Below, in pieces: positions 4,351 through 46,868 of a stretch of 64,000 bases of DNA; position 1 is the first letter of the stretch; each line of letters starts with the position of its first letter. The notes under the pieces were generated by a model that made no database searches, was not told the DNA's origin, and saw nothing but the letters and a program-made list of their open reading frames with translations. The DNA is from Carboxydocellales bacterium (GTDB taxonomy: Bacteria; Bacillota; GCA-003054495; Carboxydocellales; JAJZTU01): contig JBAQLS010000003.1 of NCBI GenBank assembly GCA_049302075.1, forward strand, positions 176,561 to 240,560, written 5' to 3'. The position numbers and the translations under genes were made by a program.

Positions 4351-5040
4351 CTACTTCTTGGCACCAATTAATTCCGGATTGCGTTCTAAGGGTTGGGATA
4401 TATCTAAATGTCCAGCCAACGTTTCCACAATTTGATTATCGATTAGAATTTGCACCCGTTGTACCGATTGAAACTGGGTCAAGGTATTTACAATAGCATA
4501 GACAGTGTTCCCTTCACTGGCAGAGCCTCCGGTATGTTTAGCCTTTAGTTCACTACTAAAACTGGCGATGGCTAACCCGTCAGGCCGAATGTTAATATCC
4601 AGCAGTTTAGTACCCTCAGGAATAGTTTGAACCAGCTGGCTTCCTGGCGTTGGTCCATTAAGTAGTTGCTCGATAGTTGCCCTAGCAATACTCTCAACCT
4701 TAGGAATTTCGCGAACTTCTTTGACCAACATTTGCTCATCTCTGCTGGTAAAATAAAGTACTACCTGAACCTTTTCTGAACCTAATTCAGCATTTTTGGC
4801 AGTCTGGGTAGTTGACTGCACTTGTGTATTATTCCCTTGGAGGACTTTAGCCTGTTCCTCACTTTTTTTAACCGGTTCCAGGCTCACTTCAGTCTGGGGC
4901 TTATCTTCACCGCCTATAAGTAATTTTAGTGTTTTTTCCACTGGTGAACAACCTACAGCAGCTATGCTCAAAATCACTAGACATCCCATTAAAGCAACCA
5001 CATTCTTAAATCCTCTAGTCATAAAATAATTCCTCCTCAC
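4351..5040 (-). CDS. gerM: GerM-domain lipoprotein (spore germination protein M-like)
   Basis: Has a lipobox (AAVGCSP). Tandem GerM-type segments carry LLNGPT..G and VYAIVNTLTQF motifs. Confidence 0.7.
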   Translation of the reverse strand: MRRNYFMTRGFKNVVALMGCLVILSIAAVGCSPVEKTLKLLIGGEDKPQTEVSLEPVKKSEEQAKVLQGNNTQVQSTTQTAKNAELGSEKVQVVLYFTSRDEQMLVKEVREIPKVESIARATIEQLLNGPTPGSQLVQTIPEGTKLLDINIRPDGLAIASFSSELKAKHTGGSASEGNTVYAIVNTLTQFQSVQRVQILIDNQIVETLAGHLDISQPLERNPELIGAKK

Positions 5041-5112
5041 GATAGTTGTCCTGTTCTATCATATGAGGAGGAATCCAAGTTAGAACGCAAGCCTTTGAAT
5101 TTTTGAATTAGC

Positions 5113-9966: not shown

Positions 9967-10602
9967 TTATTCTTCATCACCTTGTTCTCTGGATGCAAAT
10001 TCTGCTTCGCTGCCTAGATTACTGCCTAGATTACCGGGATTATCGTTTGTTGAGCTTTCCTCTTCGCAATCGTCCCTATCGAAATCATCAGTTGAGTTAC
10101 CCTCGTTCTCTCCATCTTCCTCTGCTTCGTCCTCCATTAAAACACTAGACGGATAAGCAACAACCACAAGTTTTGCTTCCCCAATTATTTCGACAGTGAA
10201 TGCTGTTACAATTCCCAGCTTAATATTTTCTCCGGTTATCCCAACTACACGGCAGGTAGGCTCTAGCCGTTCACAAACTACAACTTCTTCATCTTTCTCC
10301 AGTCGCCCCTCAAATTCACCAACAACTATTTGTTCATTGTACTCAAAGCTGTGTTTACAAAGGTCAGTCTTGCTATGTTCCTCATAAGAGTACCAAACCG
10401 TCACCTCGTATTTTCCGGTAATAACTACACTGTCGTGGAATGTTTTAGCTGAATACTGATGATTACCTACCCAATAGCCCAAAATGTGCTCCGGTCTATG
10501 GTCCGGTCTGATTTGGTGATCTTTGACAAACTTCTTCTTGCCTTTGGCACAGACGGTCTTGGCAATAATTTCCCTGATTTCTCCCTCATATTCCTGATGC
10601 AT
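9967..10602 (-). CDS. cotE: Outer spore coat morphogenetic protein CotE
   Basis: The N-terminal two thirds align by eye to B. subtilis CotE (EII.K.V.AKG.K.F...ILG.W..NH.Y.A....V.I.G.Y.....WYSY) and are followed by an acidic C-terminal tail. Confidence 0.75.
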   Translation of the reverse strand: MHQEYEGEIREIIAKTVCAKGKKKFVKDHQIRPDHRPEHILGYWVGNHQYSAKTFHDSVVITGKYEVTVWYSYEEHSKTDLCKHSFEYNEQIVVGEFEGRLEKDEEVVVCERLEPTCRVVGITGENIKLGIVTAFTVEIIGEAKLVVVAYPSSVLMEDEAEEDGENEGNSTDDFDRDDCEEESSTNDNPGNLGSNLGSEAEFASREQGDEE

Positions 10603-10699
10603 AATAGACTTTCCCTCCTTAATATCCGAAAAGCTGTTCCACCTCTTTTATCATATGCGTTGGGCAGTTTATCGGTAACAATTTACCTAAACTTTTTTC

Positions 10700-19324: not shown

Positions 19325-19615
19325 CTAAAAAAAGTTGGAGGTTTTATCATCTTCTTTCCCCCAAAACTCTTTTTGGAGCCAACGTTCTTCCCTGCTTTTA
19401 AATACCAATACAGAGTCTTTATCCGCTCGAATATTCTTGCTTAATTCCATTTGTAACTTTTTCAATAAGGCTGCTGTTATCTCTCCTTCAAAAACTGATT
19501 TTTGAACATGAGTAAGGTATTTTTTGCAAGTTTTAAAAATTCTTCTGGATGCCTTTGCGCCGCCTTCATCCATCTCAATATCATAGACTAATATAATGTA
19601 CATGATCACCACCAA
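19325..19615 (-). CDS. cas2: CRISPR-associated endoribonuclease Cas2
   Basis: 96 aa, MYIILVYDI N-terminal beta strand; overlaps the cas1 stop. Confidence 0.9.
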   Translation of the reverse strand: MVVIMYIILVYDIEMDEGGAKASRRIFKTCKKYLTHVQKSVFEGEITAALLKKLQMELSKNIRADKDSVLVFKSREERWLQKEFWGKEDDKTSNFF

Positions 19616-20622
19616 ATAGTAAACCCTTCATATTTTTTATCTCCCATCAAATGCTTTATCAGTTTATAACACTCCAGTCGAATTAAATACCGGTAAGAAA
19701 CATTTTTATTTAGTCCTTTGTGTTGAATAGTACGCATTAGACCTTCGTCATATTTCTCCAAGAGCCGCTTGCGCCCGCTTTCTTTTAAATAACAAAAGTT
19801 GGACTCGCGTTCAAAGTCCTTTTCAGTCAGCATGTTCTTATTCAGCATAGAAAATATCAGACGATCGGCAATTAGTGGTTTAAACACCTCCGCAATATCT
19901 AAACAAAGTGAAAATCTCCTTTCTCCTGCGCTATGCAAATAACTCACGGCCGGATGTAGCTGGGTTTTATATATTTCTGTTAGACAAGTCACATATACCA
20001 ACGAATTTACAAACGAGATCAGTGCATTAATCATATTGTCAGGTGGACGTTTTACCCTTTTTTCAAAATCGATCTCTTGATTGATAATCTCCTTCCACCC
20101 GCTATAATAGGCTCGCCGGATACTCCCTTCTACTCCCATTAATTCATTAACATCTTGAACTTGAGCAATGCCTCTTCTTAAAGCTTTGATGTCCGACATA
20201 CAGGCTTCCAAATCTCGATCTCTTTCATTATAATATCGCAGGTTTCGTAAAATGTTGTAGCTTGCCGCCTCAATGAATTCCTTCGCAATTTCCAACCTCT
20301 TAGAGTGCTCTGTGTAATGATTTACTTGTTCAATCAGCAATTTACCAGATACGTTTGCTTCCTTCGGATAAAAACTTCCCGTATAAAAGCCGTAGTAATT
20401 GAAAAAATGAATCGGCATGGATAACTGACCCGCATAATTCAAACATTTTGTATTTAAACTGACTTCTCCAAACACATAAATATCACGTGTCATTTCCACC
20501 TTAATATCTTTAAATCTGCCCTCGGGCGTGGTAACCCGTAAAACATTGTCTTTCCTATGCAATTCTCCATTCGCAAATAAATAGAAGCTCTCTGCCATAC
20601 TGTACCTCCTTAAACATAACAA
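19606..20622 (-). CDS. cas1: CRISPR-associated integrase Cas1
   Basis: 338 aa, positioned between cas4 and cas2 with overlapping stop/start codons; Cas1-like pattern. Confidence 0.9.
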   Translation of the reverse strand: MLCLRRYSMAESFYLFANGELHRKDNVLRVTTPEGRFKDIKVEMTRDIYVFGEVSLNTKCLNYAGQLSMPIHFFNYYGFYTGSFYPKEANVSGKLLIEQVNHYTEHSKRLEIAKEFIEAASYNILRNLRYYNERDRDLEACMSDIKALRRGIAQVQDVNELMGVEGSIRRAYYSGWKEIINQEIDFEKRVKRPPDNMINALISFVNSLVYVTCLTEIYKTQLHPAVSYLHSAGERRFSLCLDIAEVFKPLIADRLIFSMLNKNMLTEKDFERESNFCYLKESGRKRLLEKYDEGLMRTIQHKGLNKNVSYRYLIRLECYKLIKHLMGDKKYEGFTIWW

Positions 20623-21098
20623 TATTCGTAATATGCGCAGTTTTTACAGATTTTGGAGTTTATGGGAGATGGCATCTTTTTCTGCGAAACGATACTTTCT
20701 ATGCATGACATGATTTCTTCAATTTTTTCCGAATCGCCTTCCAGCAATAAGATTTCCTGACGTTTTTTAATTTTTGGATAGTCCAGTATGCCCTTTTCGA
20801 TTTGAATTCCCCTTTGATTCAGGAAATACAAATAATATTTCACTTGCCAGATAGAGGCCTCTTCAATACTTTTGCTCTTTTTGATTTCATGTAATACCTT
20901 CCAATCCTTGATGAAATCCACATTTACGGTTTCGCCAATCATAATGTGTTTATGCTCTCGTCCATAAGCAGTCTCATCAATCAACTTTCCCAACAGCACT
21001 CTATCACTTTCATTCTCAAACGCTATATTATTATAAAAACACCATAGTTTTCGCCGACAAACAAAGTAATAATAAAACATAGTTCCCGTAATACGCAT
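20610..21098 (-). CDS. cas4: CRISPR-associated exonuclease Cas4
   Basis: 162 aa with an N-terminal Cys and the C-terminal CxxCxxxxxC cluster (CKNCAYYEYC) of RecB-fold Cas4. Confidence 0.9.
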   Translation of the reverse strand: MRITGTMFYYYFVCRRKLWCFYNNIAFENESDRVLLGKLIDETAYGREHKHIMIGETVNVDFIKDWKVLHEIKKSKSIEEASIWQVKYYLYFLNQRGIQIEKGILDYPKIKKRQEILLLEGDSEKIEEIMSCIESIVSQKKMPSPINSKICKNCAYYEYCYV

Positions 21099-21135
21099 AA
21101 CCCAGGCCTCCTCAACCCACGAAAAATCATTACAT

Positions 21136-23403
21136 TTAGAAAGAATGGGCTGAAAAATCTTTAACTTCTGCTTTTGGCTTTAAAACGGGTCTGATAATTC
21201 CCTCTTCGCTGTTGTATCCACATTCAGCAATGAGAATTTGTTCATAATCGTTAATTTTTATTCGTCCTATTTCAATACTGCGTGCTAAATATGAGGATAT
21301 GTCAACAGTATAATCTGAAATCCTACTCCGCGCTTTTGCTTTAATTGTTTTAGCTTGAACTTTGTCAACCCCACTGTAGTCTGATTTCAATTCATCTCTA
21401 GCACCCATGATTTCAGTCTCATGCTCTTCAAAAACCTTGCGAGGAATCACACTCACTGTATCGATGTCGCGGAACCTTTTACTAGCCTCTTTTCTGTCAA
21501 GTTCATAGGCCTGGTAGCATTGAACATAACGTACTAGGTCTGTGATAGCGGCATAGTACTCCGGCAGCTTCTCCTTTGTGTAGAGCGTTTCTACCATAGC
21601 CACTTTCTGATCTTCTCCAATCACTCCGTCAATAGACGTTAACGCTTCCTTAGAAAGTCTGTGAATTTCTTTATCAATAAATGCACCCACCCCGCTGCAG
21701 CGTTTGTCGCCGCCAGTAAATACAAAACAGTTATACGGAAGATCCAGCTCCCGTTTTCTGTAGCATCTACCCATCCGCTGGAATAAGCCATTTAAGTCGG
21801 ATAATTCCGTAAATAGCAAATCGAAATCAATATCCAAAGATGCTTCTACAATTTGGGTTGCAATCCAAACACCACTTTCAGTACTCTTCTTTTGCCCCAT
21901 TTGATAAATATGCTTCTCTTTTACCGCCCTGTCTGCTTTGGTAAAGCAACTATGGAGAAGATGTACCTGCTGTTTCTCTTCCCCCATTTTCTCTTTGAGC
22001 CTTTGATACAAATCAACCACACTTTTTACGGTATTACAAATTACTAAAATCTTCTTGCCGCCGTATTGTTTGCTGAAACTAAAAATATCCTCAACATTGA
22101 TTGCCTTATCCAACACCTTCAAGCTATGACGAATACTGTCGTCTGTAAAAATGCGAGGGGGTTCAAATTCAATTTCTTGCTCCCTCAACAAATCGATAAA
22201 AAACTGTGGCATAGTAGCTGTTAAGATAGCAAACTTACCACCCAGGCGGGTAATATAATGCAAGCCAAGGACTAGATAAGCCATTAATTCGTGAGAGTAC
22301 ATTTGCACCTCGTCAACAATCACTTTGGCATAAGATAATGTCGCCAACTTCTGCTCAAATCCCCTATAACGGAAAACAAAGCTAAATAGTTGATCCAAAG
22401 TGCAAATAGTCAGAGGCAAGGAAAGTTGCCTTGTTTTCGTGTAATAGTCATCAACCGATAGGTCTTCACCTTTTTCATTTTGTTTGTCTTTATCTCCCAG
22501 CTCACTCTGCTCAAGATAACGGATAAATGTGTCCGAATGAAGCATTCCGACCCGTTCATCCCACTTTTCCAACACGACATCTTTCGTGATGCGCTGATAA
22601 ATTGCATTAATAGCACTTTTAAGCGGCAGAGTAAAGAATCCTTTTTTATTCCCAAGCCATAAAAGGCCTGCCTCCGTCTTACCCATTCCAGTTTGAGCAA
22701 TCACAATAACATTCTTGTCTGCACTTCTTCGCATATATTTCTGCAAATCATTCCAATGCGCCCTTGTATTACTCTCCTGCCAGCGACCCATCAAGAGTTC
22801 CAATGATTCTTCCAGGAAATCATTGGTATTCTCAACCGGGACGTGTGCACTCGCAGCGTAATCCAAACGGTTGAGCAAGCCTTCAAGCATAATAAAGCGG
22901 AAAAATAATTCCCCCTGCTCCTCGTAAAATCTTTTATTTACACTGAAATAACGCTGATCGATTTCTTCAGCGAGAAATTTTCGGGGAAGTTTATCGTATT
23001 CAAAATGTTCGAGTGCATCACGTAGCCCTGCGAATTCTTTCTCAATATCAGCATTCTGAGACGGCATTTTCCGGTCATGGTGATAAGCCACCGCCTGAAA
23101 CAAAAGCTTAAGACCATCTTTTCCAAATTTCGATTTTAGTGCTTTGTAATCAATAAAAGCCAGACTCAAAAGGCCATGTGGAATTTCATCTGTAAATCTC
23201 TTCCCATTTTTAATTCGTTCCTGAAATTTATAATTCAGTTTGCCCAAGTCATGATAAATACAAGCCCACCGCAACAAATCCCAATCTACAGACATATTAG
23301 GAAATAGTTTTCGTAATAAATCCAAATTCATCAGTAGTTCATCAGAATGGCTCTGGATATCCTCTTTGGGATTTGACTTTGCCAAAGCGCGTTCGTCCAA
23401 CAC
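21136..23403 (-). CDS. cas3: Cas3 nuclease-helicase (HD domain fused to SF2 helicase)
   Basis: HD motif (IYHDLGK), Walker A (AQTGMGKTEA) and DExx box (VIVDEVQ). Confidence 0.92.
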   Translation of the reverse strand: MLDERALAKSNPKEDIQSHSDELLMNLDLLRKLFPNMSVDWDLLRWACIYHDLGKLNYKFQERIKNGKRFTDEIPHGLLSLAFIDYKALKSKFGKDGLKLLFQAVAYHHDRKMPSQNADIEKEFAGLRDALEHFEYDKLPRKFLAEEIDQRYFSVNKRFYEEQGELFFRFIMLEGLLNRLDYAASAHVPVENTNDFLEESLELLMGRWQESNTRAHWNDLQKYMRRSADKNVIVIAQTGMGKTEAGLLWLGNKKGFFTLPLKSAINAIYQRITKDVVLEKWDERVGMLHSDTFIRYLEQSELGDKDKQNEKGEDLSVDDYYTKTRQLSLPLTICTLDQLFSFVFRYRGFEQKLATLSYAKVIVDEVQMYSHELMAYLVLGLHYITRLGGKFAILTATMPQFFIDLLREQEIEFEPPRIFTDDSIRHSLKVLDKAINVEDIFSFSKQYGGKKILVICNTVKSVVDLYQRLKEKMGEEKQQVHLLHSCFTKADRAVKEKHIYQMGQKKSTESGVWIATQIVEASLDIDFDLLFTELSDLNGLFQRMGRCYRKRELDLPYNCFVFTGGDKRCSGVGAFIDKEIHRLSKEALTSIDGVIGEDQKVAMVETLYTKEKLPEYYAAITDLVRYVQCYQAYELDRKEASKRFRDIDTVSVIPRKVFEEHETEIMGARDELKSDYSGVDKVQAKTIKAKARSRISDYTVDISSYLARSIEIGRIKINDYEQILIAECGYNSEEGIIRPVLKPKAEVKDFSAHSF

Positions 23404-23411
23404 AATACCTC

Positions 23412-25023
<1,612 letters not shown>

Positions 25024-25056
25024 ACTGATTCCCCCTCAAAAATTTATTGTAGTGTT

Positions 25057-26757
25057 CTAATTGGTATCCTGTCCGTCAATCAAACCTGCGACAAAGGCAT
25101 AACCCATGGTGCTAAAACTCTTTTCTTGTCCTAAAACATCTGTAATAACCTTCGGAACTTGGCTGTTCACATAGAGGTAACAGTTGAGTGTCACATCCAT
25201 AAACATGTCAGTGTTAGAAGTTTTGAGAGCATTGAGTAACCGATAACAAATCCCCGGAAGCTTATTGTCCGAACCTTTGGCAGTATAATTCTTGCGCAGA
25301 TAATAACCCGCCGCTTTGGCTTTTTTGACTAGATCGGTGTTTACCTGCTCCTGTTCCATAGCATTTTCCATCTTCATTCCTCCCAAACTTGTATATATTC
25401 GCTGGTTAATCTTCAATAAATGATTCACATGGGACCCATTAAAATAGCATTTTGACGAATCAGAAAGTTTATAATGCAACATTCTATGGATTAAGGTAAA
25501 TAAATTCCGATTGTTGAAGATCCGGGCAATGACCTCGTCATAGATTTGAACACTTACCCCGTTTTCGCTAAAAGCCGTTTTAATCAAACTGTTTAATTCC
25601 TGCCCAGATGCTACAATGATATCCAGCATTTTTTTGGACAAGAGATTGAAACGATAGCTCTCATTTTCATATCGGACAACCTGAACATCAGCAAGCTCAT
25701 ATTTGGCCGCTTTATTTTCCGCTTCATGCAACGCACCTACCAAGGCATGATACACAGAGCGCATTCCTACTTCATGCGCGCGTAAAATGTCATTTTTAAT
25801 TTTAAAGTTAATGTTCAGCGCATTTCTTAATTGGATATTTGCATTCACATAAAGGCCCCGATCGTAAATATAGGTTACCCCTGCTGGTAAACAAGTATAT
25901 ATCAACTTGCACACCGGACAAATGGCTATGTCATTTTGAAAATTCCACACATGCGAAGATTTTTTTTCAACGTCAAAGCCGGTTTTGGTCAAAAAGCTCA
26001 AATTGTCTTTCAAATCCTTGATAGGTGTATCACAAACAAAGCAATGATATTTATATTTACTATTGTCACTCCTCAAGTAATTGGTTGCCGTATCCACAAA
26101 ATATGTTTTGTAATCGACGTAGACGTCTTTTTGCTCTGTCTTGGCGTTGAGAAAGCATACCCCATTCCAGGCATTTTTAATGATCGAATAAATGACATTC
26201 TTAGCGCCGATTTGCCGCTTCCCATCCGCACTATCGCAGTAGTCGATGATTTGCTGCAAAACAGCAAACGCTTGCTTAACTTCAGCGATCACTCTGTTTT
26301 TATCTACATCGAACTGCTGCTGATTTTTAGGTTCTTTGATTACAGCCAACTGTTTTTCCAGCGAGAGCATGTTAACATCCAAACCGATTAACTCGTAGGC
26401 GGCCTTGTAGCTGTTGCTTTTGCTATAACGCTTCACGTCTTTTATGTAAAAATTCAAGCTCTGAAGCGCTTTTAAGTCAAAACTTTCAAAATTGCTCTCT
26501 TCATAGGCATAAAGCTTGTCCTTATAAGTTACTATTTTGTACCATGACAATGTTTTCTCATAGGTATGAATTAAATATGCAAAATATTTGTCTTCGAACT
26601 TGTCCAGTAATTTTGCTGAGAATTCAACCGTGTCTACTCCCACAAAGCGGACATTTTCCTGCCCGACAACATTTATAAAACCTATTATCGCCGCATTCCA
26701 CTGCCAATCACCCAGTGTGAGTCGTATGGTATCGCTACTCATTTCATCCCTCCTCAC
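25057..26757 (-). CDS. cas8b: Cas8b (Cst1-type) large Cascade subunit
   Basis: 566 aa, positioned between cas6 and cas7, with a central four-Cys zinc ribbon (CFVC ... CPVC). Confidence 0.75.
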   Translation of the reverse strand: MRRDEMSSDTIRLTLGDWQWNAAIIGFINVVGQENVRFVGVDTVEFSAKLLDKFEDKYFAYLIHTYEKTLSWYKIVTYKDKLYAYEESNFESFDLKALQSLNFYIKDVKRYSKSNSYKAAYELIGLDVNMLSLEKQLAVIKEPKNQQQFDVDKNRVIAEVKQAFAVLQQIIDYCDSADGKRQIGAKNVIYSIIKNAWNGVCFLNAKTEQKDVYVDYKTYFVDTATNYLRSDNSKYKYHCFVCDTPIKDLKDNLSFLTKTGFDVEKKSSHVWNFQNDIAICPVCKLIYTCLPAGVTYIYDRGLYVNANIQLRNALNINFKIKNDILRAHEVGMRSVYHALVGALHEAENKAAKYELADVQVVRYENESYRFNLLSKKMLDIIVASGQELNSLIKTAFSENGVSVQIYDEVIARIFNNRNLFTLIHRMLHYKLSDSSKCYFNGSHVNHLLKINQRIYTSLGGMKMENAMEQEQVNTDLVKKAKAAGYYLRKNYTAKGSDNKLPGICYRLLNALKTSNTDMFMDVTLNCYLYVNSQVPKVITDVLGQEKSFSTMGYAFVAGLIDGQDTN

Positions 26758-27485
26758 ACTACATCGAGGCAGCCAAAGCCCATCGATCTCTTGCTGCCCA
26801 CTCCCGCCATATAGAGGTATTCAAGCAAATATTTTTCCCCTTCCAGTACCAAGCTGCCGATGGTACAGGGAATGTAAATTCCGTAACTTTTAATCACTGT
26901 TTTTTTTAGATTAATTGGCTTGATGCGCAAGGCATTAATATCACCGCTGACATCTCGACCCAAGGCATTTTCCAGTTCGGTTTTTAAGTTTCGTTTCCAA
27001 ATTTTCTCGAATCCGTCGTCCTCAAAAGTGAGATACCAGTCCTTCCCTTCTTTTCCATCATGATCCCGGATGACTATAGGAGATAGGATTTTAAAGCGAA
27101 CAGTAGTGTCCGTGATGGAATGTTCTTGCACTTTAGTTATTGATAGGGCCTTTAACTTATTATTGCAATCAGCCAGAGGAAACCACTTGTTGCGGCGAGT
27201 CATAAAAGCATTCACTAGATGCACACCCATCAAAACATCTCGCGTGGTAAGCCAGACCAGAAAGCGTTTGCTGTGAAGAGTGATTCCGTCTTTAGCAATA
27301 GTTACTTCCTGTGTAAAATATATACTAAAGCAAAAAGACTTGGGAGAGTGTCCTTGTCCGTATAATGCCATAAAAAGATCTTGATTGTAATCCATTAATG
27401 CTTCTTTTAGATAAGATAAAAACTTTCTGCGATAATCAATAGGCAACTCTTCACATCCTGTTTCAAACTCGATTTTAATACGCAT
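26754..27485 (-). CDS. cas6: Cas6 crRNA endoribonuclease
   Basis: 243 aa, first gene of the operon, with a C-terminal glycine-rich loop (GVGSKRSMGFGCL). Confidence 0.85.
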   Translation of the reverse strand: MRIKIEFETGCEELPIDYRRKFLSYLKEALMDYNQDLFMALYGQGHSPKSFCFSIYFTQEVTIAKDGITLHSKRFLVWLTTRDVLMGVHLVNAFMTRRNKWFPLADCNNKLKALSITKVQEHSITDTTVRFKILSPIVIRDHDGKEGKDWYLTFEDDGFEKIWKRNLKTELENALGRDVSGDINALRIKPINLKKTVIKSYGIYIPCTIGSLVLEGEKYLLEYLYMAGVGSKRSMGFGCLDVV

Positions 27486-31909: not shown

Positions 31910-32734
31910 ATGCGCAGTATGTGGAAAGGGGCCATTAGCTTTGGCTTGGTGAATATCCCGGTAAAATTGTATACCGCTACGGAAAAAAAAGATGTTAAAT
32001 TTAATTATCTCCACTCAGTCTGTAAAACACCTGTCCAATATCAAAAAGTCTGTCCTGTTTGTCAGCGGGAGGTACCCATGGAAGAAATTGTCCGAGGTTA
32101 TGAGTACCAAAAGGGCAAATATGTGCTAATTGCTGAAGATGATTTAGAAAATCTTCCTGCTGCCACCGCTCGGGCGGTAGAAATTCTAGACTTTATTGAT
32201 CTAGCAGAAATAGACCCCCTATATTATGATAAATCCTATTACCTTACTCCCAATGAAGGGGGGCAAAAAGCCTATGCCTTACTTAAAAAAGCTATGCAGG
32301 ATACAGGCAAAATCGCCATTGCCAAGGTGGTTATTCGCTCCAAACAGTCTCTAGCTGCCATAAGGATCCATCAAGAAGCCTTGGTAATGGAAACCATGTT
32401 TTTCCCGGAGGAAATCCGTTCCACCAAATTCCTGGCGGAGCTGGACTATCAAACCGAACTCCATGATAACGAACTAAAAATGGCCATAAGCCTGATTAAT
32501 AGTTTGGCCGCCACCTTTGACCCAGAAAAATATAACAATGAATACCGGGCAGCCCTAATGGAGGTTATTCAGGCTAAAATTGCTGGTGAGGAAATCTCCA
32601 TCCCCGCCCAGGCCCCAACTGGTAAAGTGGTAGATCTAATGGAGGCTTTAAAAGCCAGTATTCAATTGGCTAAAACGGTAAAAACCGCCAAAGCAACTAA
32701 AGCACGGGCTAAATCAACTCGTAAAACATCCTAG
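31910..32734 (+). CDS. ku: Ku protein (non-homologous end joining)
   Basis: The N-terminus MWKGAISFGLVNIPVKLY is canonical bacterial Ku; there is a basic C-terminal tail. Confidence 0.95.
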   Translation: MRSMWKGAISFGLVNIPVKLYTATEKKDVKFNYLHSVCKTPVQYQKVCPVCQREVPMEEIVRGYEYQKGKYVLIAEDDLENLPAATARAVEILDFIDLAEIDPLYYDKSYYLTPNEGGQKAYALLKKAMQDTGKIAIAKVVIRSKQSLAAIRIHQEALVMETMFFPEEIRSTKFLAELDYQTELHDNELKMAISLINSLAATFDPEKYNNEYRAALMEVIQAKIAGEEISIPAQAPTGKVVDLMEALKASIQLAKTVKTAKATKARAKSTRKTS

Positions 32735-32761
32735 GTTGACCCCTAAGGAGGAAGTGTATTT

Positions 32762-33712
32762 ATGGTCAAATTATCCTCAAAACTTCCCCTACTCAAGCCC
32801 ATGTTAGCTGTAATGGGGGAGCCTTTTGATTCATCCGACTTTCTTTTCGAGATTAAATGGGATGGAATCCGTTGCTTGGCCTATTTAACTGAGGAAACAG
32901 TACTCTATAGTAGGAACAGCAATGATATAACCCAACGCTACCCGGAACTATCTAACCTCCATCATAAACTCCAGGGAGTGCCAATGATTCTAGATGGGGA
33001 GATTGTGGTCTTTGAAAGGGATAAACCTTCTTTTCACCGGTTGTTGACCCGAAACAGAATGACTAACAATTACCGGATTGGTCAGGCCGCAGCCCAATAC
33101 CCAGCTGTTTTGATGGTTTTTGACCTTTTATACTATCAAGGGAAAAGCCAATTACACCTACCCCTGCGGGAAAGAAAAAAATTATTAGCTGATGTAGTTG
33201 TCCCCACAGCGAATTTGAGACTGAGTGAATATGTGCAAAATGAGGGTGTGGAATTTTATCAAGCTATTTGCCGGCTAGAATTAGAGGGTATGGTAGCCAA
33301 GAAACTGGACAGTCAGTACCTACCCGGCAAACGTTCCCACAGCTGGCACAAGATTAAGCGTATCCAGGAAGAATACCTGATTATCTGCGGCTATACCAAA
33401 GGGAAGGGTCAGCGGCAAAGCCTAGGCTCACTTATTTTAGGTGGCTACCGGGGGGAATGTTTAATTTATGCCGGACAGGTAGGGTCTGGTTTTAGCCAGT
33501 CCGGTGTGGAGGAAATTAAACAACTCCTCCAGCCCCTAAGCAGAGCGGAAAGCCCCTTAGAACACTATCCCTCGTTGCCCCAAGCCCTTTGGGTGGAGCC
33601 GAAATTGGTGTGTACGGTAAAGTTCCTGGAACGGACAGAAAACGGCGAGATTCGGCATAGCAGCTTCACCGGGCTGAGGCCGGATAAAGAGCCGGGGGAG
33701 TGCCAATTATGA
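32762..33712 (+). CDS. ligD: ATP-dependent DNA ligase (LigD ligase domain only)
   Basis: Adenylation motif I KxDG (EIKWDGIR); 316 aa. Confidence 0.9.
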   Translation: MVKLSSKLPLLKPMLAVMGEPFDSSDFLFEIKWDGIRCLAYLTEETVLYSRNSNDITQRYPELSNLHHKLQGVPMILDGEIVVFERDKPSFHRLLTRNRMTNNYRIGQAAAQYPAVLMVFDLLYYQGKSQLHLPLRERKKLLADVVVPTANLRLSEYVQNEGVEFYQAICRLELEGMVAKKLDSQYLPGKRSHSWHKIKRIQEEYLIICGYTKGKGQRQSLGSLILGGYRGECLIYAGQVGSGFSQSGVEEIKQLLQPLSRAESPLEHYPSLPQALWVEPKLVCTVKFLERTENGEIRHSSFTGLRPDKEPGECQL

Positions 33713-33806
33713 TTGAACTGGGGTGCCAGGTGTAGGTCTGTTTTTGCTGTTCTGTCTGGGTGTGGTTTTAGTGGTCTATGTCTGGGTAGCAGTCCAAGCT
33801 TTGTAA

Positions 33807-34010
33807 CCGGTCGGACACCTGTCCAGGTTTGGAGCTCTTAGTTCCATACCGTGCAGATCTAAGCACAGGTGGTCTAATAAAACCGACCAACCTGGACAAT
33901 ACGGCGTCCATGCCTAGATGTCCAGGTTGGTCAATTCAGTTAGCGAGCTGGAACTTAGAACTGCACGGATAAAGCGCAGAACGCCCACACCGGACAGGTA
34001 CTCTGACCGG
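33807..34010 (+). repeat. Long-hairpin repeat, copy C (same family as 43289-43593 and 46321-46848)
   Basis: Termini are ccggtcggacacctgtcc and ggacaggtactctgaccgg. There is a perfect 14-bp inner stem, gaccaacctggaca/tgtccaggttggtc. It shares gctcttagttccata, ctaataaaa and the loop core CGTCCATG with copy A. Confidence 0.85.
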
Positions 34011-34041
34011 AGATTAATTCTTAGAAAGGAGCAAACAAATA

Positions 34042-34944
34042 ATGGATAAAATTGTGCAAATCGACAACCGGGAGCTTAAGTTAACTAATTTGGACAAACA
34101 GTACTGGCCGGAAGGGTACACAAAAGGAGACCTCCTGGCCTATTATGCTCAGGTGGCCCCCATACTACTGCCCTATATAAAAGACCGTCCCCTAACCATG
34201 AAACGCTATCCAAATGGCATAGAGGGTCACTTTTTCTACCAGAAGGAATGCCCTGAATATGCTCCGGAGTGGATTCGCACCACACCTATACCCTCCGACG
34301 ATCAGGAAAAGGTTACTAACTATATCCTAATTGAAGATCAGGCTTCACTGATGTGGGTTATTAACCAAGGCTGTATTGAGGTACACTGCCCGCTCTCCAC
34401 TGTGGACAGCCTCCAGTCTCCTAACTTGGCTATCTTTGACCTGGACCCTGCTGAGCCGGCCAACTATGATGATGCTATTGACCTAGCCTTGCTGATTAAA
34501 GCTGCAATGCAGGAGTTTGGCTTACAGTTATTTCCGAAAATTTCCGGAGCAACCGGGCTGCATATCCTGCTGCCCCTTAACCCAATTTATACCTATGCTG
34601 AAGTCAGGACAGCCCTACTGTTCATCTGCGAACTAATTGTCAGCCACCATCCTCAGAAAGCAACCTTGGAGCATCGGGTTAAAGACCGGACAGGTAAGGT
34701 TTATCTGGATTATCTGCAAAATGCCTGGGGTAAAAACATGGCCTGGGTGTACAGCCTACGGCCGGAGCCTGGCGCCCCTGTCTCCTGCCCCTTGAGTTGG
34801 GAGGAAATAGAGCAGGGCCGGTTAAAACCCGGGGATATCAATATTACCAACCTAACTGAACGCTTGCAGCAAGTGGGGGAGCTTTATGCCGGTATGCTTA
34901 ACCTTAAACAGGAGCTTAAACCGATTTTGGATTTGGTTAACTGA
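34042..34944 (+). CDS. LigD polymerase/primase domain protein (AEP family)
   Basis: DxD motif (IFDLDP) and SGxxGLH motif (ISGATGLHILLP). Confidence 0.9.
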   Translation: MDKIVQIDNRELKLTNLDKQYWPEGYTKGDLLAYYAQVAPILLPYIKDRPLTMKRYPNGIEGHFFYQKECPEYAPEWIRTTPIPSDDQEKVTNYILIEDQASLMWVINQGCIEVHCPLSTVDSLQSPNLAIFDLDPAEPANYDDAIDLALLIKAAMQEFGLQLFPKISGATGLHILLPLNPIYTYAEVRTALLFICELIVSHHPQKATLEHRVKDRTGKVYLDYLQNAWGKNMAWVYSLRPEPGAPVSCPLSWEEIEQGRLKPGDINITNLTERLQQVGELYAGMLNLKQELKPILDLVN

Positions 34945-42535: not shown

Positions 42536-42776
42536 AAAAACCCTGGAAGATAATTCCTCCAGGGCATAGGTCAGCAGAAAAACGCCAAACACAGCAAAAA
42601 CATTGCTGTACGTTGTTCCTTCTCCCATCCAGACTTTAACTGTCGGCTTCGGAATTGCTGAGCCTATTGCTAAGCTCTCGCTCACCGAATCTGCCCTTGC
42701 GGGCTTGCGGGCTCGGCTGTTGACCAATGGTCTGCAGCCTTACCGCCGGTACGGAATTACACCCGTCCCTGAAGGA
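42536..42776 (-). promoter_or_regulatory. FMN riboswitch (RFN element) with terminator, controlling ribDE(BA)H
   Basis: The minus strand reads tccttcagggacgggtgtaattccgtaccggcggtaa...gattcggtga...ccgaagccgacagttaaagtctggatgggagaagga, with P1 tccttc/gaagga (aptamer 42617-42776). The terminator hairpin ccctggag..ttccaggg plus T-run lies at 42536-42566. Confidence 0.9.
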
Positions 42777-42957
42777 TTTATATTTATAAGTTAATTATGG
42801 ATAATTATAAACTAGGACAATAGTAATTGTCAAATGAAAGCCATGCAAAGAAATTGGGCATTTGGCGGAGCACCCTCAAGCTTTAAATACCATATGTTAA
42901 ACTACACAGAAGTCTGTGCTTAAAAAAAAATACTGTGGATAACAGGAGGAACTAATT

Positions 42958-43248
42958 ATGTGGCGACAAATGTACGGTGATATGAACCCAACGTCTGGGA
43001 TGAGTGGTGCACAAGGTGGAATGTCCATGATGGGCGGTTCTATGAACCCCATGATGCATGGAGGAATGTGTATGCCTCCCATGCACCACATGATGCCCAT
43101 GCATTGCATGAAGCCCATGCACCATATGATGCATCCAATGATGTGCTGTATGCCCATGATGCATCCAATGATGATGCATAAACCCATGATGCATCCAATG
43201 ATGTGCTGCCTGATGATGTGCTGCAAACCCATGAAGCATCATTGTTGA
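42958..43248 (+). CDS. Small hypothetical protein of extreme Met/His/Cys/Pro composition (candidate metal-binding or spore-associated protein)
   Basis: 96 aa with AGGAGG 8 nt upstream of the ATG. My count of the given translation is 35 Met, 12 His, 12 Pro and 9 Cys. It contains PMMHPMM(CC) repeats. No signal peptide or TM segment. Confidence 0.6.
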   Translation: MWRQMYGDMNPTSGMSGAQGGMSMMGGSMNPMMHGGMCMPPMHHMMPMHCMKPMHHMMHPMMCCMPMMHPMMMHKPMMHPMMCCLMMCCKPMKHHC

Positions 43249-43288
43249 GTACTGAAACTCCGGTCAGCCTTTGTAGGTTACTGAGCCT

Positions 43289-43593
43289 CCGGTCGGATCC
43301 ATGTTTCATTTGGGGTCATTATGACCGGTCGGATACCTATTCCGGCAAGGCGCTCTTAGTTCCATACTCTAGTAGCTCTAAAGCTCTGCATACTAATAAA
43401 AGCACCCTAAACCTCGCCGATTCATCGTCCATGATTCAGCGGCGAGGCGGCCACTGTCATAAGGGTGGCCGGGGTGCTTTTATTGCATGCCGAGCTTAAG
43501 TGCTGCTACGGTACTCCACCATGAGCGCCTTCACCGGAACAGGTATCCGACCTGGTATTATGCATGTCTACGGGGAACAGGTATCCGACCTGG
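43289..43593 (+). repeat. Long-hairpin repeat, copy A (left boundary of the 43.3-46.85 kb cassette)
   Basis: Two nested pairs of termini: ccggtcggatcc (43289) pairs with ggtatccgacctgg (43593), and ccggtcggatacctattccgg (43325) pairs with ccggaacaggtatccgacctgg (43555). The three-way core at 43398-43481 has two hairpins, CCTCGCCG/CGGCGAGG and GGCCAC/GTGGCC, closed by AAAGCACCC/GGGGTGCTTT. Confidence 0.85.
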
Positions 43594-43667
43594 GTCAGCA
43601 CCCGGGGGTCTTAGGTGCGGGCTGGGAGTGGCTGTGTAGACAGGGGCATGACCCCAGAGGACCTAAG

Positions 43668-43753
43668 CGCCGGGGACCGGAATCGAACCGGTACGGGCGA
43701 TGAAGCCCGCAGGATTTTAAGTCCTTTGCGTCTGCCAGTCTCCTGCAAACCGC
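43668..43753 (-). pseudogene. tRNA-Leu(UAA) remnant; 3' about 73 nt intact, 5' acceptor/D-stem strand replaced
   Basis: The minus strand reads ..gactggcagacgcaaaggaCTTAAAAtcctgcgggcttcatcgcccgtaccggTTCGATTccggtccccggcg. It has the anticodon loop, a long variable arm, the T-arm and the 3' acceptor strand. The 13 nt where the 5' strand should be (gcggtttgcagga) cannot pair with ccccggc. Confidence 0.7.
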
Positions 43754-43897
43754 TAATAATAAGGGTTTACCCTTCGTGTATGTATTTAAGATTACAGGAT
43801 TTGAAAACGTCTGAATGTGATTTAGTGATAATCCTGTATGGTAAAAATATCAAAGTCTGTAGGAATAAGCGACAGAACAATAGTTATGTATTCGTTC

Positions 43898-44329
43898 CTA
43901 TGAAGGTTGACTGTTTAATATTCTGCTTTTTACATCTACAACTTCAGATAGAATTAAATTCTTTAGTAACGCATGACGTTCTTTTAAAAACTCCACAAAT
44001 TCATTATCATATTCACCATTAATTAGCTTATCTGAATTTGGAATTAATTGTGATTCCATAGAATGCATCTAAATCAAATGACTCTTTCAGAGCGATGTTT
44101 TCCATGAGCTTACAGTCGTCAACAATAACATCATTGGTTGAACCAGTCATACCCCCACCGTATCGATTGTTAAGAAGTGAGCCCCAAAACCAAAACTTGA
44201 ATAGTTTTCTTGTCTTTGCGTTCTTTGACTAAAATCTTTAGAAGGCAAATGCTTAAGAAAATGCATCATTGGGATAAACATAGTCTTGTAGGGTAACCAT
44301 TTAATACTTATCAATAATTTTTCAGACAT
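43898..44329 (-). pseudogene. Frameshifted remnant of a larger gene (three collinear reading-frame pieces)
   Basis: Manual translation of the minus strand gives three pieces. They are MSEKLLISIKWLPYKTMFIPMMHFLKHLPSKDF.., then (frame shift) FWGSLLNNRYGGGMTGSTNDVIVDDCKLMENIALKESFDLDAFYG.., then (frame shift) DKLINGEYDNEFVEFLKERHALLKNLILSEVVD... There is no RBS or intact frame. The family assignment (possibly DUF262-type C-terminal region) is only a recollection. Confidence 0.5.
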
Positions 44330-44462
44330 TAAAAACTTATAAGTTTTAGCACTGCTGAAATATCTTAATACTTACATATGAACAAATAAAAAAGAGGAGG
44401 AAAATACCCCCTCTATGTATAACCATAAAATTCAACCTTACGCCTCAAAAAGCCAATAGTTC

Positions 44463-45467
44463 CTATTTAAGCTCATTTGCATATACATAAGAAATAATCT
44501 CTCTATAAGGAGTCTCAATCCACCCTTTTTCTTCATGTGAAAACTCTGAGATTTCGCTCGCATTATAATGTCCGTACCTTTGCTTCACTTGTTCCAAAAC
44601 CGCCATTTCCTCTGCAGTAAAAATATCCGGGTCAAATTCTGCTAAGGGTTGAATTATATCGCCAGAATGTACATAAACTTGAGATGGATTAAGGGTTATA
44701 TATCCCAATTTCTCTAAATGCCATAACAGTCCTTCAAAATCTTGTGGAACAGGTCCGTAATCCAACTTAATATATTTCAATCCAGTTACAGAAATCGTAA
44801 AGTCTTTGAAGAAACTGAAGTCAGTATAAAATAAAAGCTTATTTAACTTTGTTTTCCATAAGTCATTCACATTTTGTGCGAAATATAGAACAGTGTTGAG
44901 AACCTTTTGAAAATCTATTTGTTTGAATCCAGATTCAATATTTATAAATGAATACTCAAGCTTTCTTTGTAAAAGATATACGAAGCTATCCTCTTCCTTT
45001 TCTTCAATTATGGACTCTATTTTAGCCATCGCTTTTTTGTAAGTGGAACTTGGTATCAAATTTTTCGCCTCAACTAAAAAATCCTTCATTATTTCAGGGT
45101 TTTGCAACAATTTTAGCAATCTATGATGAGCTTCATTTGGAATTGCACCAGTTTCATATCTATGAATTGTAATTGCTCCCCACCCTAAAACTTTACCAAG
45201 TGTCCTTTGCGACAATCCATATCTTTCTCTAATTTCACCGATGTCTTTAGGCGACATATAAGAATGGCGTTTTCTATATTCATCATATGCTTGTTCTAAA
45301 TTCTCCTCCTCCAAAGCCATATCTAACAACTCATTTCCACAAAGGCAAACCCGAATAGTCGATTCGACTTCAATATCTTCCCCCCTAACCGTAATTACCT
45401 CGTTCTTCTTAAGAATTGTGCTTTCTTTCTCTCCGCACTTTTCGCATACTATAGTATTTGCCATCAT
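44463..45467 (-). CDS. Tripartite antitoxin candidate: MqsA-like zinc ribbon + XRE-type HTH + C-terminal Panacea (DUF4065/SocA-like) domain
   Basis: CxxC...CxC zinc ribbon (CEKCGE..VCLCGN). The HTH segment is YGLSQRTLGKVLGWGAITIHRYETG. The C-terminal KLNKLLFYTDF....G......YGPVP pattern is typical of DUF4065. Strong RBS AGGAGGAGG. Confidence 0.7.
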   Translation of the reverse strand: MMANTIVCEKCGEKESTILKKNEVITVRGEDIEVESTIRVCLCGNELLDMALEEENLEQAYDEYRKRHSYMSPKDIGEIRERYGLSQRTLGKVLGWGAITIHRYETGAIPNEAHHRLLKLLQNPEIMKDFLVEAKNLIPSSTYKKAMAKIESIIEEKEEDSFVYLLQRKLEYSFINIESGFKQIDFQKVLNTVLYFAQNVNDLWKTKLNKLLFYTDFSFFKDFTISVTGLKYIKLDYGPVPQDFEGLLWHLEKLGYITLNPSQVYVHSGDIIQPLAEFDPDIFTAEEMAVLEQVKQRYGHYNASEISEFSHEEKGWIETPYREIISYVYANELK

Positions 45468-45501
45468 GCGAATCCTCCTCCTAACTTAAACCTCCTGAAT
45501 T

Positions 45502-45867
45502 CTATTTGTATGGATAATGGTTAGGTCTCTCTGCAATGTGAAATGATATGCACACGCAAAAGTCCCCACCACTGTTATCCTCTATCTTTATTTTTATCTG
45601 GAACTCATAACCATCAATATTAAAACCAAACAAGAAATAGTCTCCTGGTGGAAATCTTGTGTCACGCTCTGCTTCCGGCCCGCACAAATAATCCTTGTAG
45701 GTTAGACCAAGTATATATTCCTTAATATGACTTGGTTTTAAACCTACCCTTGACAACGAAGCTATATTCTTTTTTCTTTCCTCAAACCTAAATTGTTCCT
45801 GAGTAAAAGCTTGTTTTATCCTTAACAGGAAGCCATTAATTTCACCAATGGGTATCTTGTTTCCCAT
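45502..45867 (-). CDS. MqsR-like toxin candidate (121 aa from the ATG at 45867)
   Basis: The pattern LTYKDYLCGPEAE...GDYFLFG....G.EFQIKIKI......CVCISFH resembles the MqsR family pattern as I recall it. The GAGGTGA RBS sits before the internal ATG. The toxin-first gene order matches mqsR-mqsA. Confidence 0.6.
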   Translation of the reverse strand: MGNKIPIGEINGFLLRIKQAFTQEQFRFEERKKNIASLSRVGLKPSHIKEYILGLTYKDYLCGPEAERDTRFPPGDYFLFGFNIDGYEFQIKIKIEDNSGGDFCVCISFHIAERPNHYPYK

Positions 45868-45898
45868 GCAATCACCTCGCTTTGGTATTCCTATTTTC

Positions 45899-45948
45899 AT
45901 TATATACCATAACAAGGCAATATGAAAGCTATTTGTTATCATATGATA
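45899..45948 (-). promoter_or_regulatory. Candidate promoter and operator of the toxin-antitoxin operon
   Basis: The minus strand has TTTCAT-N17-TATAAT (-10 at 45899-45904). A perfect 12-bp palindrome TATCATATGATA lies at 45937-45948, just upstream. Confidence 0.4.
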
Positions 45949-46320
45949 GCATATTTTTGCCCTTTTTATACATGAGTTTTACAATTAAGTTCAAATGGGT
46001 TTATCTATTTATTCTCATATTACGGGGATAATATCTATTCCAATTGCTGAACATGTGTTCTGATAATGAGATGAAACCTCTACTTGTTCATACGGTGTTA
46101 TTGGATTCCGCTCTGTTAAAAAACTACCCCCATGCATTAATGCCTTTCAAGGAAAAGCAGATTTAGTAATACTGCCCCACCTATAATCTCTTAATGCCCG
46201 GCTTAGGACTACCAAAAGGTAAAGATTTTAACAGACCACAATATTAAATAATCAAATATGCATTGCGTAAAAACAAATTCCAAGGTTCACAGTTAGCGAA
46301 AGCCTTGGAATGCTTATGTT

Positions 46321-46848
46321 TGTAAGCCGGTGTCGGATAAGGTACACCTAGCTCGGTTCGGGTGAAAGTTATTTAGCCCACAAGCCAGTAATGTGGCTTG
46401 GTGGGCTTATCAGCTAATCCGGGTATACCTGTCCGGCCCAAGTCAAGTGCCGGCCTATGTCAAAGCTGTACCGTTCAGCTCAAGGCTGATTACTGGTCTT
46501 CCGACTCAAGTAACCTGCTTGCAGCTGTCGGCCAGGCTGAATGCAGCCCTTACTACCAGGTCGGGTGCCAGTGCCGGTTAAGGTACACATGGCTTCGTGC
46601 CATAGTAGCTGTTAGTGAAAGTGGGCAATAGAAAGCACCCCGGCCACCAAGGATGGTGGCCGCCTCGCCGCTGAGACAAGGACGTCGATCACCACAAGGG
46701 TACCCCGTATCCGTACGTCGTTGTACTCCTACGGCTACGTCGTCGGCGAGGTTTAGGGTGCTTTCTATTAGCCCACTAAACTTACAGCTACTAAGGTAGA
46801 TAGCTAAGTGTACCGGACCGGCACTGGCACCCGACCGGTCATAAAGAC
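46321..46848 (-). repeat. Long-hairpin repeat, copy B (inverted relative to copy A) plus adjacent partial copies
   Basis: A roughly 287-nt hairpin at 46555-46841 has arms accaggtcgggtgccagtgccgg and ccggcactggcacccgaccggtc. Its core at 46632-46766 has the same two stems as copy A in reverse-complement orientation. 46321-46547 holds further terminus-like motifs (ccggtgtcggataagg, ccgggtatacctgtccgg). Confidence 0.85.
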
Positions 46849-46868
46849 CACAAATTAAGCCTAGATAG

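Follow-up and report, generated by a model that had tools for sequence, protein, structure and literature searches.

CotD, a protein of the inner spore coat of Bacillus (PF11122), is small (74 to 107 amino acids [aa]), of low complexity, and rich in His, Pro, and Cys; its CC pairs are found toward either end, it lacks a signal peptide, and its stand-alone gene depends on sigma-K. In B. subtilis, cotD is listed among the late mother-cell genes (PMC517825). An extreme Met content together with high Cys is found in natural methionine-rich proteins (MRPs), such as FeNos/MRP1 of Nostoc, with 33% Met and 12% Cys (Liang et al. 2012, PMC3514235). A further system is MrpX of Azospira suillum, a periplasmic protein of 20% Met and 44% charged residues, which is encoded in an operon with yedYZ (MsrPQ) under the control of a reactive chlorine species-responsive extracytoplasmic function sigma factor, and for which a sacrificial Met-rich peptide system has been experimentally established (PMC4436054). 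Here, we describe an open reading frame (ORF) that shares traits with each of these systems, located at positions 42958 to 43248 of a 64,000-nucleotide (nt) stretch of DNA from a Carboxydocellales bacterium (hereafter, the window). An earlier, sequence-only reading of the same DNA had drawn attention to the composition of this ORF. The explanation that we favor, with slightly less than even confidence, is that it encodes an orphan, lineage-specific, sulfur-rich protein of the spore coat or surface whose expression is driven by sigma-K. This reading is built on the sigma-K-type promoter, the strong ribosome-binding site, the lack of an export signal, the small, predicted disordered, Cys/His/Pro-rich product, and the restriction to one lineage. 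The features of the gene are as follows.

42870..42874, plus strand: sigma-K-type -35 element GCACC (consensus KCACM), belonging to the one site of the window that fits KCACM-N15-(N)CATANNNTA without a mismatch
42890..42899, plus strand: sigma-K-type -10 element CCATATGTTA (9 of 10 positions of the consensus GCATANNNTA), 15 nt past the -35 element and ending 58 nt before the ATG
42944..42949, plus strand: Shine-Dalgarno sequence AGGAGG, 8 nt ahead of the start codon
42958..43248, plus strand: coding sequence of 96 codons, ATG to TGA, with a translation exactly as quoted in the sequence-only reading
43078..43208, plus strand: codon-phased tandem repeats within the coding sequence (periods of 12, 15, 18, and 30 nt; units such as MMHPMMCC and KPMMHPMM), detected with Tandem Repeats Finder

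The predicted product contains 35 Met among its 96 residues (36.5%), followed by His (12 residues, 12.5%), Pro (12), Cys (9), and Gly (9), and sulfur-containing residues account for 46% of the chain. Three CC pairs are located at residues 63, 83, and 88, and the C terminus is HHC; this recount agrees with the one given earlier. The computed mass is 11.1 kDa and the isoelectric point 8.7, with ~6% charged residues and a total of 4 Lys and 1 Arg. The long ORFs of the window contain 2.3% Met, and finding at least 35 Met in 96 residues has a binomial probability of ~2e-32, a figure in which residues and codons do not count as independent events because the C-terminal two thirds of the ORF were made by recent duplications. 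This portion consists of codon-phased DNA repeats, including two identical 23-nt copies 60 nt apart. The nonrepetitive residues 1 to 30 contain 8 Met (P ~3e-7). As had also been claimed, neither a signal peptide nor a transmembrane segment was found, the maximum in a 19-residue Kyte-Doolittle window being 0.92. A single-sequence AlphaFold2 model of the product had a mean predicted local distance difference test score of 49.6, with one short helix and otherwise no secondary structure, predicting that the protein is disordered.

Upstream of the ORF, the two promoter elements form in silico the arrangement KCACM-15 nt-GCATANNNTA tabulated as the sigma-K consensus of B. subtilis (PMC3416734), with a deviation only at the weakly conserved base that opens the -10 element. 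A 15-nt spacer is the optimum according to Eichenberger et al. 2004 (PMC517825), and an alternative consensus, MWCM-16-CATANNNTD, has also been given (PMC9562818). With the Bacillus consensus as the reference, GCACC-15 nt-CCATATGTTA was the sole exact match in 128 kb (the 64-kb window read on both strands), where 0.09 would be expected by chance. A promoter scan of the plus strand revealed no sigma-70-type promoter in the ~150 nt upstream of the ORF; the best plus-strand matches were two of 9/12, located far off inside the leader of the divergent rib operon, which itself has a perfect TTGACA-18-TATAAT promoter (42833..42804, minus strand). The ribosome-binding site described in the sequence-only reading is present with its 8-nt spacing. 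AGGAGG occurs 48 times in the window, ~20 of them at such spacing ahead of ORFs of at least 96 aa.

Two further sequence elements were observed around the promoter. Just 5' of the -35 element, AATTGGGCATTT (42852-42863, plus strand) fits the GerE box, which we take to be RWWTRGGYNNYY. Its relevance is doubtful, since GerE has been reported to be absent from Clostridium (PMC517825). At the predicted transcription start there is a 5-bp inverted repeat, CACAG-AAGT-CTGTG (42905-42918, plus strand), which might act as an operator or form a 5' stem-loop.

The Met-rich region is rich in ATG and CAT, and four of its six frames are open, including the plus frame and an antisense ORF (42952..43242, minus strand) that follows it codon for codon and would encode a 96-aa protein with 36% His. 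That the minus strand is the coding one, yielding a Ni- or Zn-binding His-rich protein, might be suggested by the open frame, by a positive synonymous-codon score, and by the location of most genes of the window on that strand. The distribution of codons points to the plus strand. Of 36 ATG trinucleotides, 35 fall into the plus frame, and every tandem-repeat period is a multiple of 3. All 35 His codons of the antisense ORF are CAT and none is CAC, against a genomic usage of 0.66/0.34 (P ~5e-7), a bias expected only if the plus-strand ATG is constrained; the His codons of the plus frame (9 CAT and 3 CAC) match the expectation. Therefore, the constraint sits on the single Met codon of the plus strand, and the plus frame is, on this codon evidence, the selected one. 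In addition, synonymous positions of the plus frame (Pro CCC/CCA/CCT and Cys TGC/TGT) correspond to Gly/Trp/Arg and Ala/Thr changes on the minus strand, and the nearest GGAG lies 13 to 16 nt from two candidate antisense ATGs, leaving no usable Shine-Dalgarno sequence. We give a His-rich antisense product almost no credence. Codon usage was also tried as a strand criterion and was discarded as uninformative: ATG has no synonyms, and CAT is favored for His, and the all-CAT argument was used instead.

Sporulation had been mentioned only in passing in the sequence-only reading, as a condition for expression and in a reference to coat loci, and it became the best-supported lead, with a perfect sigma-K consensus promoter ahead of the ORF and CotE encoded in the genome. 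Among the products of the window are CotE (PF10628, E = 1.5e-38) and a Germane-domain protein; sigK itself is not encoded there. The cotE gene (9970-10602, minus strand) is preceded by a promoter at 10649-10678 (minus strand), TTACC-15 nt-GCATATGATA, which has one mismatch and ends 46 nt before the ATG. This is among the five sigma-K-type sites with at most one mismatch in the window, and, as far as the sequence allows, it provides a positive control for the motif from within the genome itself. The nearest named relatives of the RibD protein belong to Desulfotomaculum, Desulfallas, Desulfofundulus, and Pelotomaculum. Together with the genes for CotE and the Germane-domain protein, these relatives indicate that the source organism forms endospores and has the coat machinery of the mother cell. 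A side observation concerns the Germane-domain gene (4354-5040, minus strand), which has CATATGATA upstream at 5057-5065.

If the ORF encodes a coat or surface protein, sigma-K RNA polymerase would produce a late-sporulation, monocistronic transcript from the promoter at 42870-42899, and the strong Shine-Dalgarno sequence would drive translation of an 11-kDa, disordered, basic polypeptide. An export signal would not be needed, because coat assembly takes place in the mother-cell cytoplasm. Upon deposition on the forespore, the three CC pairs and the C-terminal HHC might form disulfide or metal-bridged cross-links, and the dense Met, His, and Cys residues could give rise to a coat layer that ligates soft metals (Cu(I), Ag(I), Ni, and Zn) and absorbs oxidants sacrificially. 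We infer sigma-K transcription, coat localization, cross-linking, and the metal or oxidant chemistry from these sequence features. Only a part of the sigma-K regulon is shared between distant spore formers: of the sigma-K transcription units of B. subtilis, only ~20% are found in Clostridium, which Eichenberger et al. attributed to an enrichment of fast-evolving spore-surface proteins, and the same authors argued that endospore formers share conserved sequences for recognition by sigma factors (PMC517825). The orphan status of the Met-rich ORF fits this class of late coat genes.

At 96 aa, the Met-rich product shares with CotD its small size, its low complexity, its richness in His, Pro, and Cys, the CC pairs near both ends, the stand-alone gene, and the absence of a signal peptide. 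The resemblance in sequence is limited to one short motif, P-(I/M)-(V/M)-H-P-x-x-C-C, which reads PIVHPTHCC in CotD and PMMHPMMCC here; a BLASTP alignment of the two gave E = 0.022 in a single comparison. The Pfam CotD model PF11122 did not match the Met-rich ORF at E <= 10. As a control, a B. subtilis CotD sequence, 99% identical to the database CotD, matched PF11122 at 1.1e-15. With a hidden Markov model (HMM) built from 11 CotD proteins, the composition-corrected score of the ORF was -10.2, and 430 of 1,000 shuffled sequences scored as high. Without the null2 correction, the score was 18.8 against 5.7 +/- 2.8 for the shuffles, with 1 of 1,000 reaching it, a value inflated by the motif repeats within the ORF; the alignment covered positions 2 to 24 only. 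The invariant CotD core, T-x-V-P-H-I-H-P-x-H-T-T-N-V-N-H ... H-V-H-Y-F-P-H, is absent from the Met-rich ORF, and the Met content of CotD, as read from the alignment, is ~3 to 5% compared with 36% here. All CotD relatives retrieved came from Bacillus or Metabacillus. Membership in the CotD family was rejected, since there is no profile match, the core is absent, and the score equals that of shuffled sequences after composition correction. Plausibly, the Met-rich protein may function like a CotD-type coat component while not being a member of that family.

A role in metal binding had been the central idea of the sequence-only reading, which pointed to Cu(I)/Ag(I) ligand motifs. The ORF product contains 13 MxxM, 5 MxM, 8 MxH, and 7 HxxM spacings, a trivial consequence of its composition. 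The same spacings, with thioether and imidazole ligands, occur in the Mets-motif Cu(I)/Ag(I) sites of CusF, PcoC/CopC, the Met-rich insert of CueO, and the N terminus of Ctr1, which are segments of folded extracytoplasmic proteins encoded together with cop/cus/pco genes. In contrast, the whole protein is the motif here, it has no export signal, and there are no cop/cus/pco neighbors. Bacterial metallothioneins (SmtA/BmtA and MymT-like) gave no Pfam or NCBIfam match at E <= 10, and AlphaFold2 found no fold. The product also brings to mind Hpn and Hpn-like Ni-storage proteins of Helicobacter, which are tiny, cytoplasmic, low-complexity metal buffers with His runs and Cys pairs; Hpn is about half His and poor in Met, compared with 12.5% His and 36% Met in the ORF.

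A vegetative, cytoplasmic, metallothionein-like sponge or chaperone that buffers Cu(I), Ag(I), Ni, or Zn under metal stress could make use of these spacings, of the three CC pairs, and of the HHC end, and disordered Cys/His-rich small proteins are generally known for metal buffering. Furthermore, Met/His-rich tails of lactic-acid-bacterial laccases have been described as capturing Cu and Ag (PMC12723717). The surroundings of the gene speak against such a sponge. No metal-homeostasis domain was detected among the scanned neighbors, and the neighbors and scanned parts of the window contain no metal-responsive regulator, efflux ATPase, or chaperone and no cop/cso/czc/ars gene or regulator. The gene has a perfect sigma-K promoter and no sigma-70-type promoter; the known Met-motif Cu(I) sites are extracytoplasmic, whereas this ORF lacks an export signal; no metallothionein family in Pfam or NCBIfam matches it; and the gene is not kept even in close relatives. 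We consider a vegetative sponge improbable. The idea of metal ligands survives in part: the spacings are abundant and ligation by thioether, imidazole, and thiolate groups is chemically plausible, but metal-gene context and an export signal were not found. On these sequence features, ligation would be compatible with a coat location, while a vegetative sponge lacks contextual support.

Characterized MRPs have 21 to 33% Met and mostly carry signal peptides, whereas the Met-rich ORF has 36.5% Met, no signal peptide, a His/Pro-rich composition, and a sporulation-type promoter; no sequence relationship between them was detected. Met-rich proteins oxidize readily and are then reduced by methionine sulfoxide reductase (Msr) enzymes (PMC3514235). 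MrpX and the ORF product are both small and Met-rich, and sacrificial thioether oxidation is a plausible chemistry for them, but the signal peptide, the high charge, and the cotranscription with yedYZ/msrPQ of MrpX are not seen here. The ORF might nevertheless encode a late-sporulation protein without a structural role, either storing sulfur amino acids for germination or serving as a sacrificial Met/Cys antioxidant sink that Msr enzymes recycle, in the manner of MrpX. Its high proportion of sulfur-containing residues, the sacrificial system established for MrpX, and the cycle of Met oxidation and reduction would all be in line with this, and the sigma-K promoter evidence counts equally for it. 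We know of no such storage role in bacterial spores, the ~6% charged residues and the missing signal peptide differ from MrpX, no msr gene was found among the neighbors, and the host, judged from its relatives, is probably a strict anaerobe. A nonstructural sporulation protein is therefore regarded as rather unlikely.

The sequence-only reading did not recognize any named family, and this was borne out by the searches. No Pfam or NCBIfam family, metallothioneins included, matched at E <= 10; a word-indexed search of 5.8 billion proteins returned no homologue; and exhaustive phmmer against 1.84 billion representatives gave no real homologue, its single match being a spurious satellite-like repeat protein. 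A tblastn search against plasmids yielded nothing, Rfam models gave only chance microRNA and small nucleolar RNA matches over the ORF, and a literature search for its peptide motifs found nothing. A collection of 15 billion proteins and a gene-position index include neither the ORF itself, nor eight versions of it with other starts, nor two antisense ORFs; annotation pipelines may have failed to call the ORF.

Because the composition filters of HMMER and BLAST may mask low-complexity relatives, degenerate DNA patterns were scanned as well, in collections from which the window's own species is missing or in which it is masked. The pattern for PMMHPMM, the unit repeated most often, gave 33 matches in GTDB species genomes, 76 in JGI metagenomes, and 8 in IMG/VR, with no orthologue among them; a GTDB genome pattern search gave 16 matches, 0 of which were confirmed by tblastn, and the MHPMMCC pattern had 0 matches in viral contigs. 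The PMMHPMM matches are compositionally analogous ORFs in unrelated taxa, including eukaryotic low-complexity domains. Some of these are of interest by themselves. A 316-aa Cys/Met/His/Asn/Gly protein with CHPMM repeats, from a Rickettsiales metagenome-assembled genome (L022, 7040-7990, minus strand; the same protein in L087), is encoded ~1.3 kb from an uncharacterized 601-aa ORF; an uncultured bacterium encodes a 102-aa membrane-anchored Met/His/Cys protein (L003, 2277-2585, plus strand); and Alphaproteobacteria encode Met/His proteins with signal peptides (L012/L063). As judged by sequence, these appear to be compositional analogues, none demonstrably homologous to the Met-rich ORF.

Upstream of the ORF and divergent from it are a flavin mononucleotide (FMN) riboswitch and ribD-E-BA-H; on the downstream side, a ~390-nt hairpin element, a tRNA-like remnant, a toxin-antitoxin (TA) pair, and rpe follow. 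The neighbor map confirmed that the ORF stands alone, divergent from the rib operon and near a repeat-bounded cassette, and the neighbors (rib operon, an S-layer homology [SLH] protein, the TA pair, and rpe) include no adjacent maturase or transporter, as stated before. Being small, Cys/His-rich, and stand-alone, the ORF might be taken for the precursor of a ribosomally synthesized and posttranslationally modified peptide, with a Cys-rich or chalkophore-like product. Such a precursor is very unlikely: no radical S-adenosylmethionine, multinuclear nonheme iron-dependent oxidative (MNIO), cyclodehydratase, protease, or exporter gene is present within ~6 kb on either side, and 96 aa without leader/core organization are unlike known precursors. 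A leader-peptide or attenuator role was ruled out, as no biosynthetic gene follows on the same strand.

The hairpin element adjoins the ORF directly.

43250..43637, no strand assigned: long imperfect-palindrome element, starting 2 nt past the stop codon; folding energy -200 kcal/mol, z = -9.2

Within it, on the plus strand, a stem-loop at 43448-43471 with a U-run in the bases that follow resembles a terminator and, by its sequence, could end the Met-rich transcript; the element belongs to the islet described below and not necessarily to the gene. An inverted copy, ~73% identical, is found at 46551-46866 and a partial one at 33806-33849, and the two inverted copies (~320 to 390 nt) flank the TA cassette. 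Rfam gave no match to the element even at E <= 1; it is either similar to a miniature inverted-repeat transposable element or an undescribed structured RNA.

Comparison with relatives delimits the region. In L035 and L036 (RibD identity of 83%) and L041 (75%), the gene order is pknB-rsgA-rpe-Hist_deacetyl(-Fur)-FMN riboswitch-ribD, with Fur present in L041. DNA homology to these relatives is lost at 46869, where rpe ends, and picks up again within the rib promoter at 42814; from this break, the DNA comparison assigns the interval 42815-46868 to a 4-kb islet specific to the strain or species. This islet contains the Met-rich gene, the two inverted palindrome copies, the degenerate tRNA-like sequence, and a SocA/Panacea-MqsA-type antitoxin with its 146-aa partner, and it replaces a 347-aa Hist_deacetyl gene (compared with L035, 4542-5657), of which tblastn detected no remnant in the window. 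Many independent metagenome assemblies of relatives (in the series L037 to L046) are uninformative on the region upstream of rib: the contigs begin with bases that correspond to window positions 42616-42658, in the conserved core of the FMN riboswitch, an assembly artifact of a shared 31-mer.

Several components of the islet were observed in their own right. The tRNA-like sequence (43668-43747, minus strand) is degenerate, scoring 32.6 bits against the Rfam model for selenocysteine tRNA (tRNA-Sec), below the threshold, with no call by ARAGORN; plasmids of Clostridioides, Priestia, and Bacillus contain unannotated stretches that resemble it with up to 87% identity and are presumably tRNA genes. 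An integrated element probably left it behind as a remnant of its attachment site. The putative antitoxin is a 334-aa protein (44463-45467, minus strand) with an MqsA-like zinc-ribbon/helix-turn-helix N terminus and a SocA/Panacea antitoxin domain. Its partner of 146 aa (45502-45942, minus strand), in an overlapping operon, matches no Pfam family and may be a novel toxin.

A number of these results weigh against a coat or surface protein. The similarity to CotD is weak and vanishes under composition correction, and, to our knowledge, a Met-dominated composition is not a known coat-protein signature. The promoter call applies a Bacillus consensus to a distant, Desulfotomaculum-like lineage. No homologue was found in any searched collection, and the protein is absent from the 15-billion-protein collection although RibD of the same contig (MFZ3170636.1) is present. 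The relatives have Hist_deacetyl at the syntenic position and no Met-rich ORF there, the gene sits in the islet amid mobile-element debris, and much of its sequence is a recent repeat expansion, as would be expected of a young or drifting ORF. The sequence-only reading had named a lack of conserved orthologues as grounds for abandoning its claim, and this applies in part: none was found, and the relatives lack the gene at the syntenic site. The missing orthologues weaken a claim of conserved function, and their absence is normal for late coat genes.

The same observations raise the alternative that the ORF is young or nonfunctional, that is, codon-phased, ATG/CAT-rich repeat DNA in a recombination hot spot, open by chance behind promoter- and ribosome-binding-site-like sequences and either unexpressed or not under selection. 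This would account for a singleton without homologues that is missing at the syntenic site and adjoins palindromic repeats, a tRNA remnant, and a TA module, and the identical 23-nt repeats indicate a very recent expansion. Three further frames are open across the region, and the synonymous codon usage, -0.05 bits/codon versus +0.09 +/- 0.03 in the genes of the window, is not gene-like. Against it, three independent signals come together, namely, an exact AGGAGG at 8 nt, an exact sigma-K consensus suitably far from the start codon (joint probability far under 1e-4), and strict ATG phasing; in addition, the Met enrichment reaches the nonrepetitive N terminus, and the all-CAT antisense His codons show constraint on the Met codons of the plus frame. 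We consider a nonfunctional ORF unlikely, yet a serious contender. Similarly doubtful is a more specific scenario, in which the ORF is a newborn, lineage-specific spore-surface protein, composed almost wholly of soft-ligand residues, that arose at an integration hot spot when codon-phased repeats expanded, became wired to sigma-K, and would provide the spores of an anaerobe with a thioether/thiolate "armor" against thiophilic metals (Cu(I), Ag(I), and possibly Hg or Cd) or oxidants. If this scenario were true, it would represent an undescribed coat chemistry and one of the most Met-rich natural bacterial proteins.

Should the protein be made and reside in the coat, as in the reading that we favor, Met-dominated chemistry would join the repertoire of low-complexity coat proteins, which includes Tyr/Gly/Lys-, Cys-, or His-rich ones, and the gene would illustrate neatly the speed at which new surface proteins are drawn into the sigma-K regulon. 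A natural 11-kDa polypeptide with 35 thioethers would also become available for studies of Cu(I)/Ag(I) binding and methionine oxidation. If the gene is not expressed, it would merely be a repeat-generated ORF in a variable islet. In either case, a gene of such composition slips past homology-based searches and possibly past automated annotation.

Elsewhere in the window, a clustered regularly interspaced short palindromic repeat (CRISPR) array extends from 16657 to ~19150, with 38 copies of the 30-nt repeat CTTTACATTCCACAATGGTTAGATTTCAAC at a spacing of ~66 nt. The genes beside it (19606-27485, minus strand), cas1, cas4, cas3, cas5, cas7/DevR, cas6, and one for a Cas8-like CXXC_CXXC protein, make up a type I system. 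Genes for nonhomologous end joining lie together at 31910-34944 (plus strand) and encode Ku, an ATP-dependent DNA ligase, and the LigD primase-polymerase. In relatives, the LigD genes are located directly 3' of the rib operon, while here the SLH-domain protein and a flavin adenine dinucleotide oxidoreductase lie in between.

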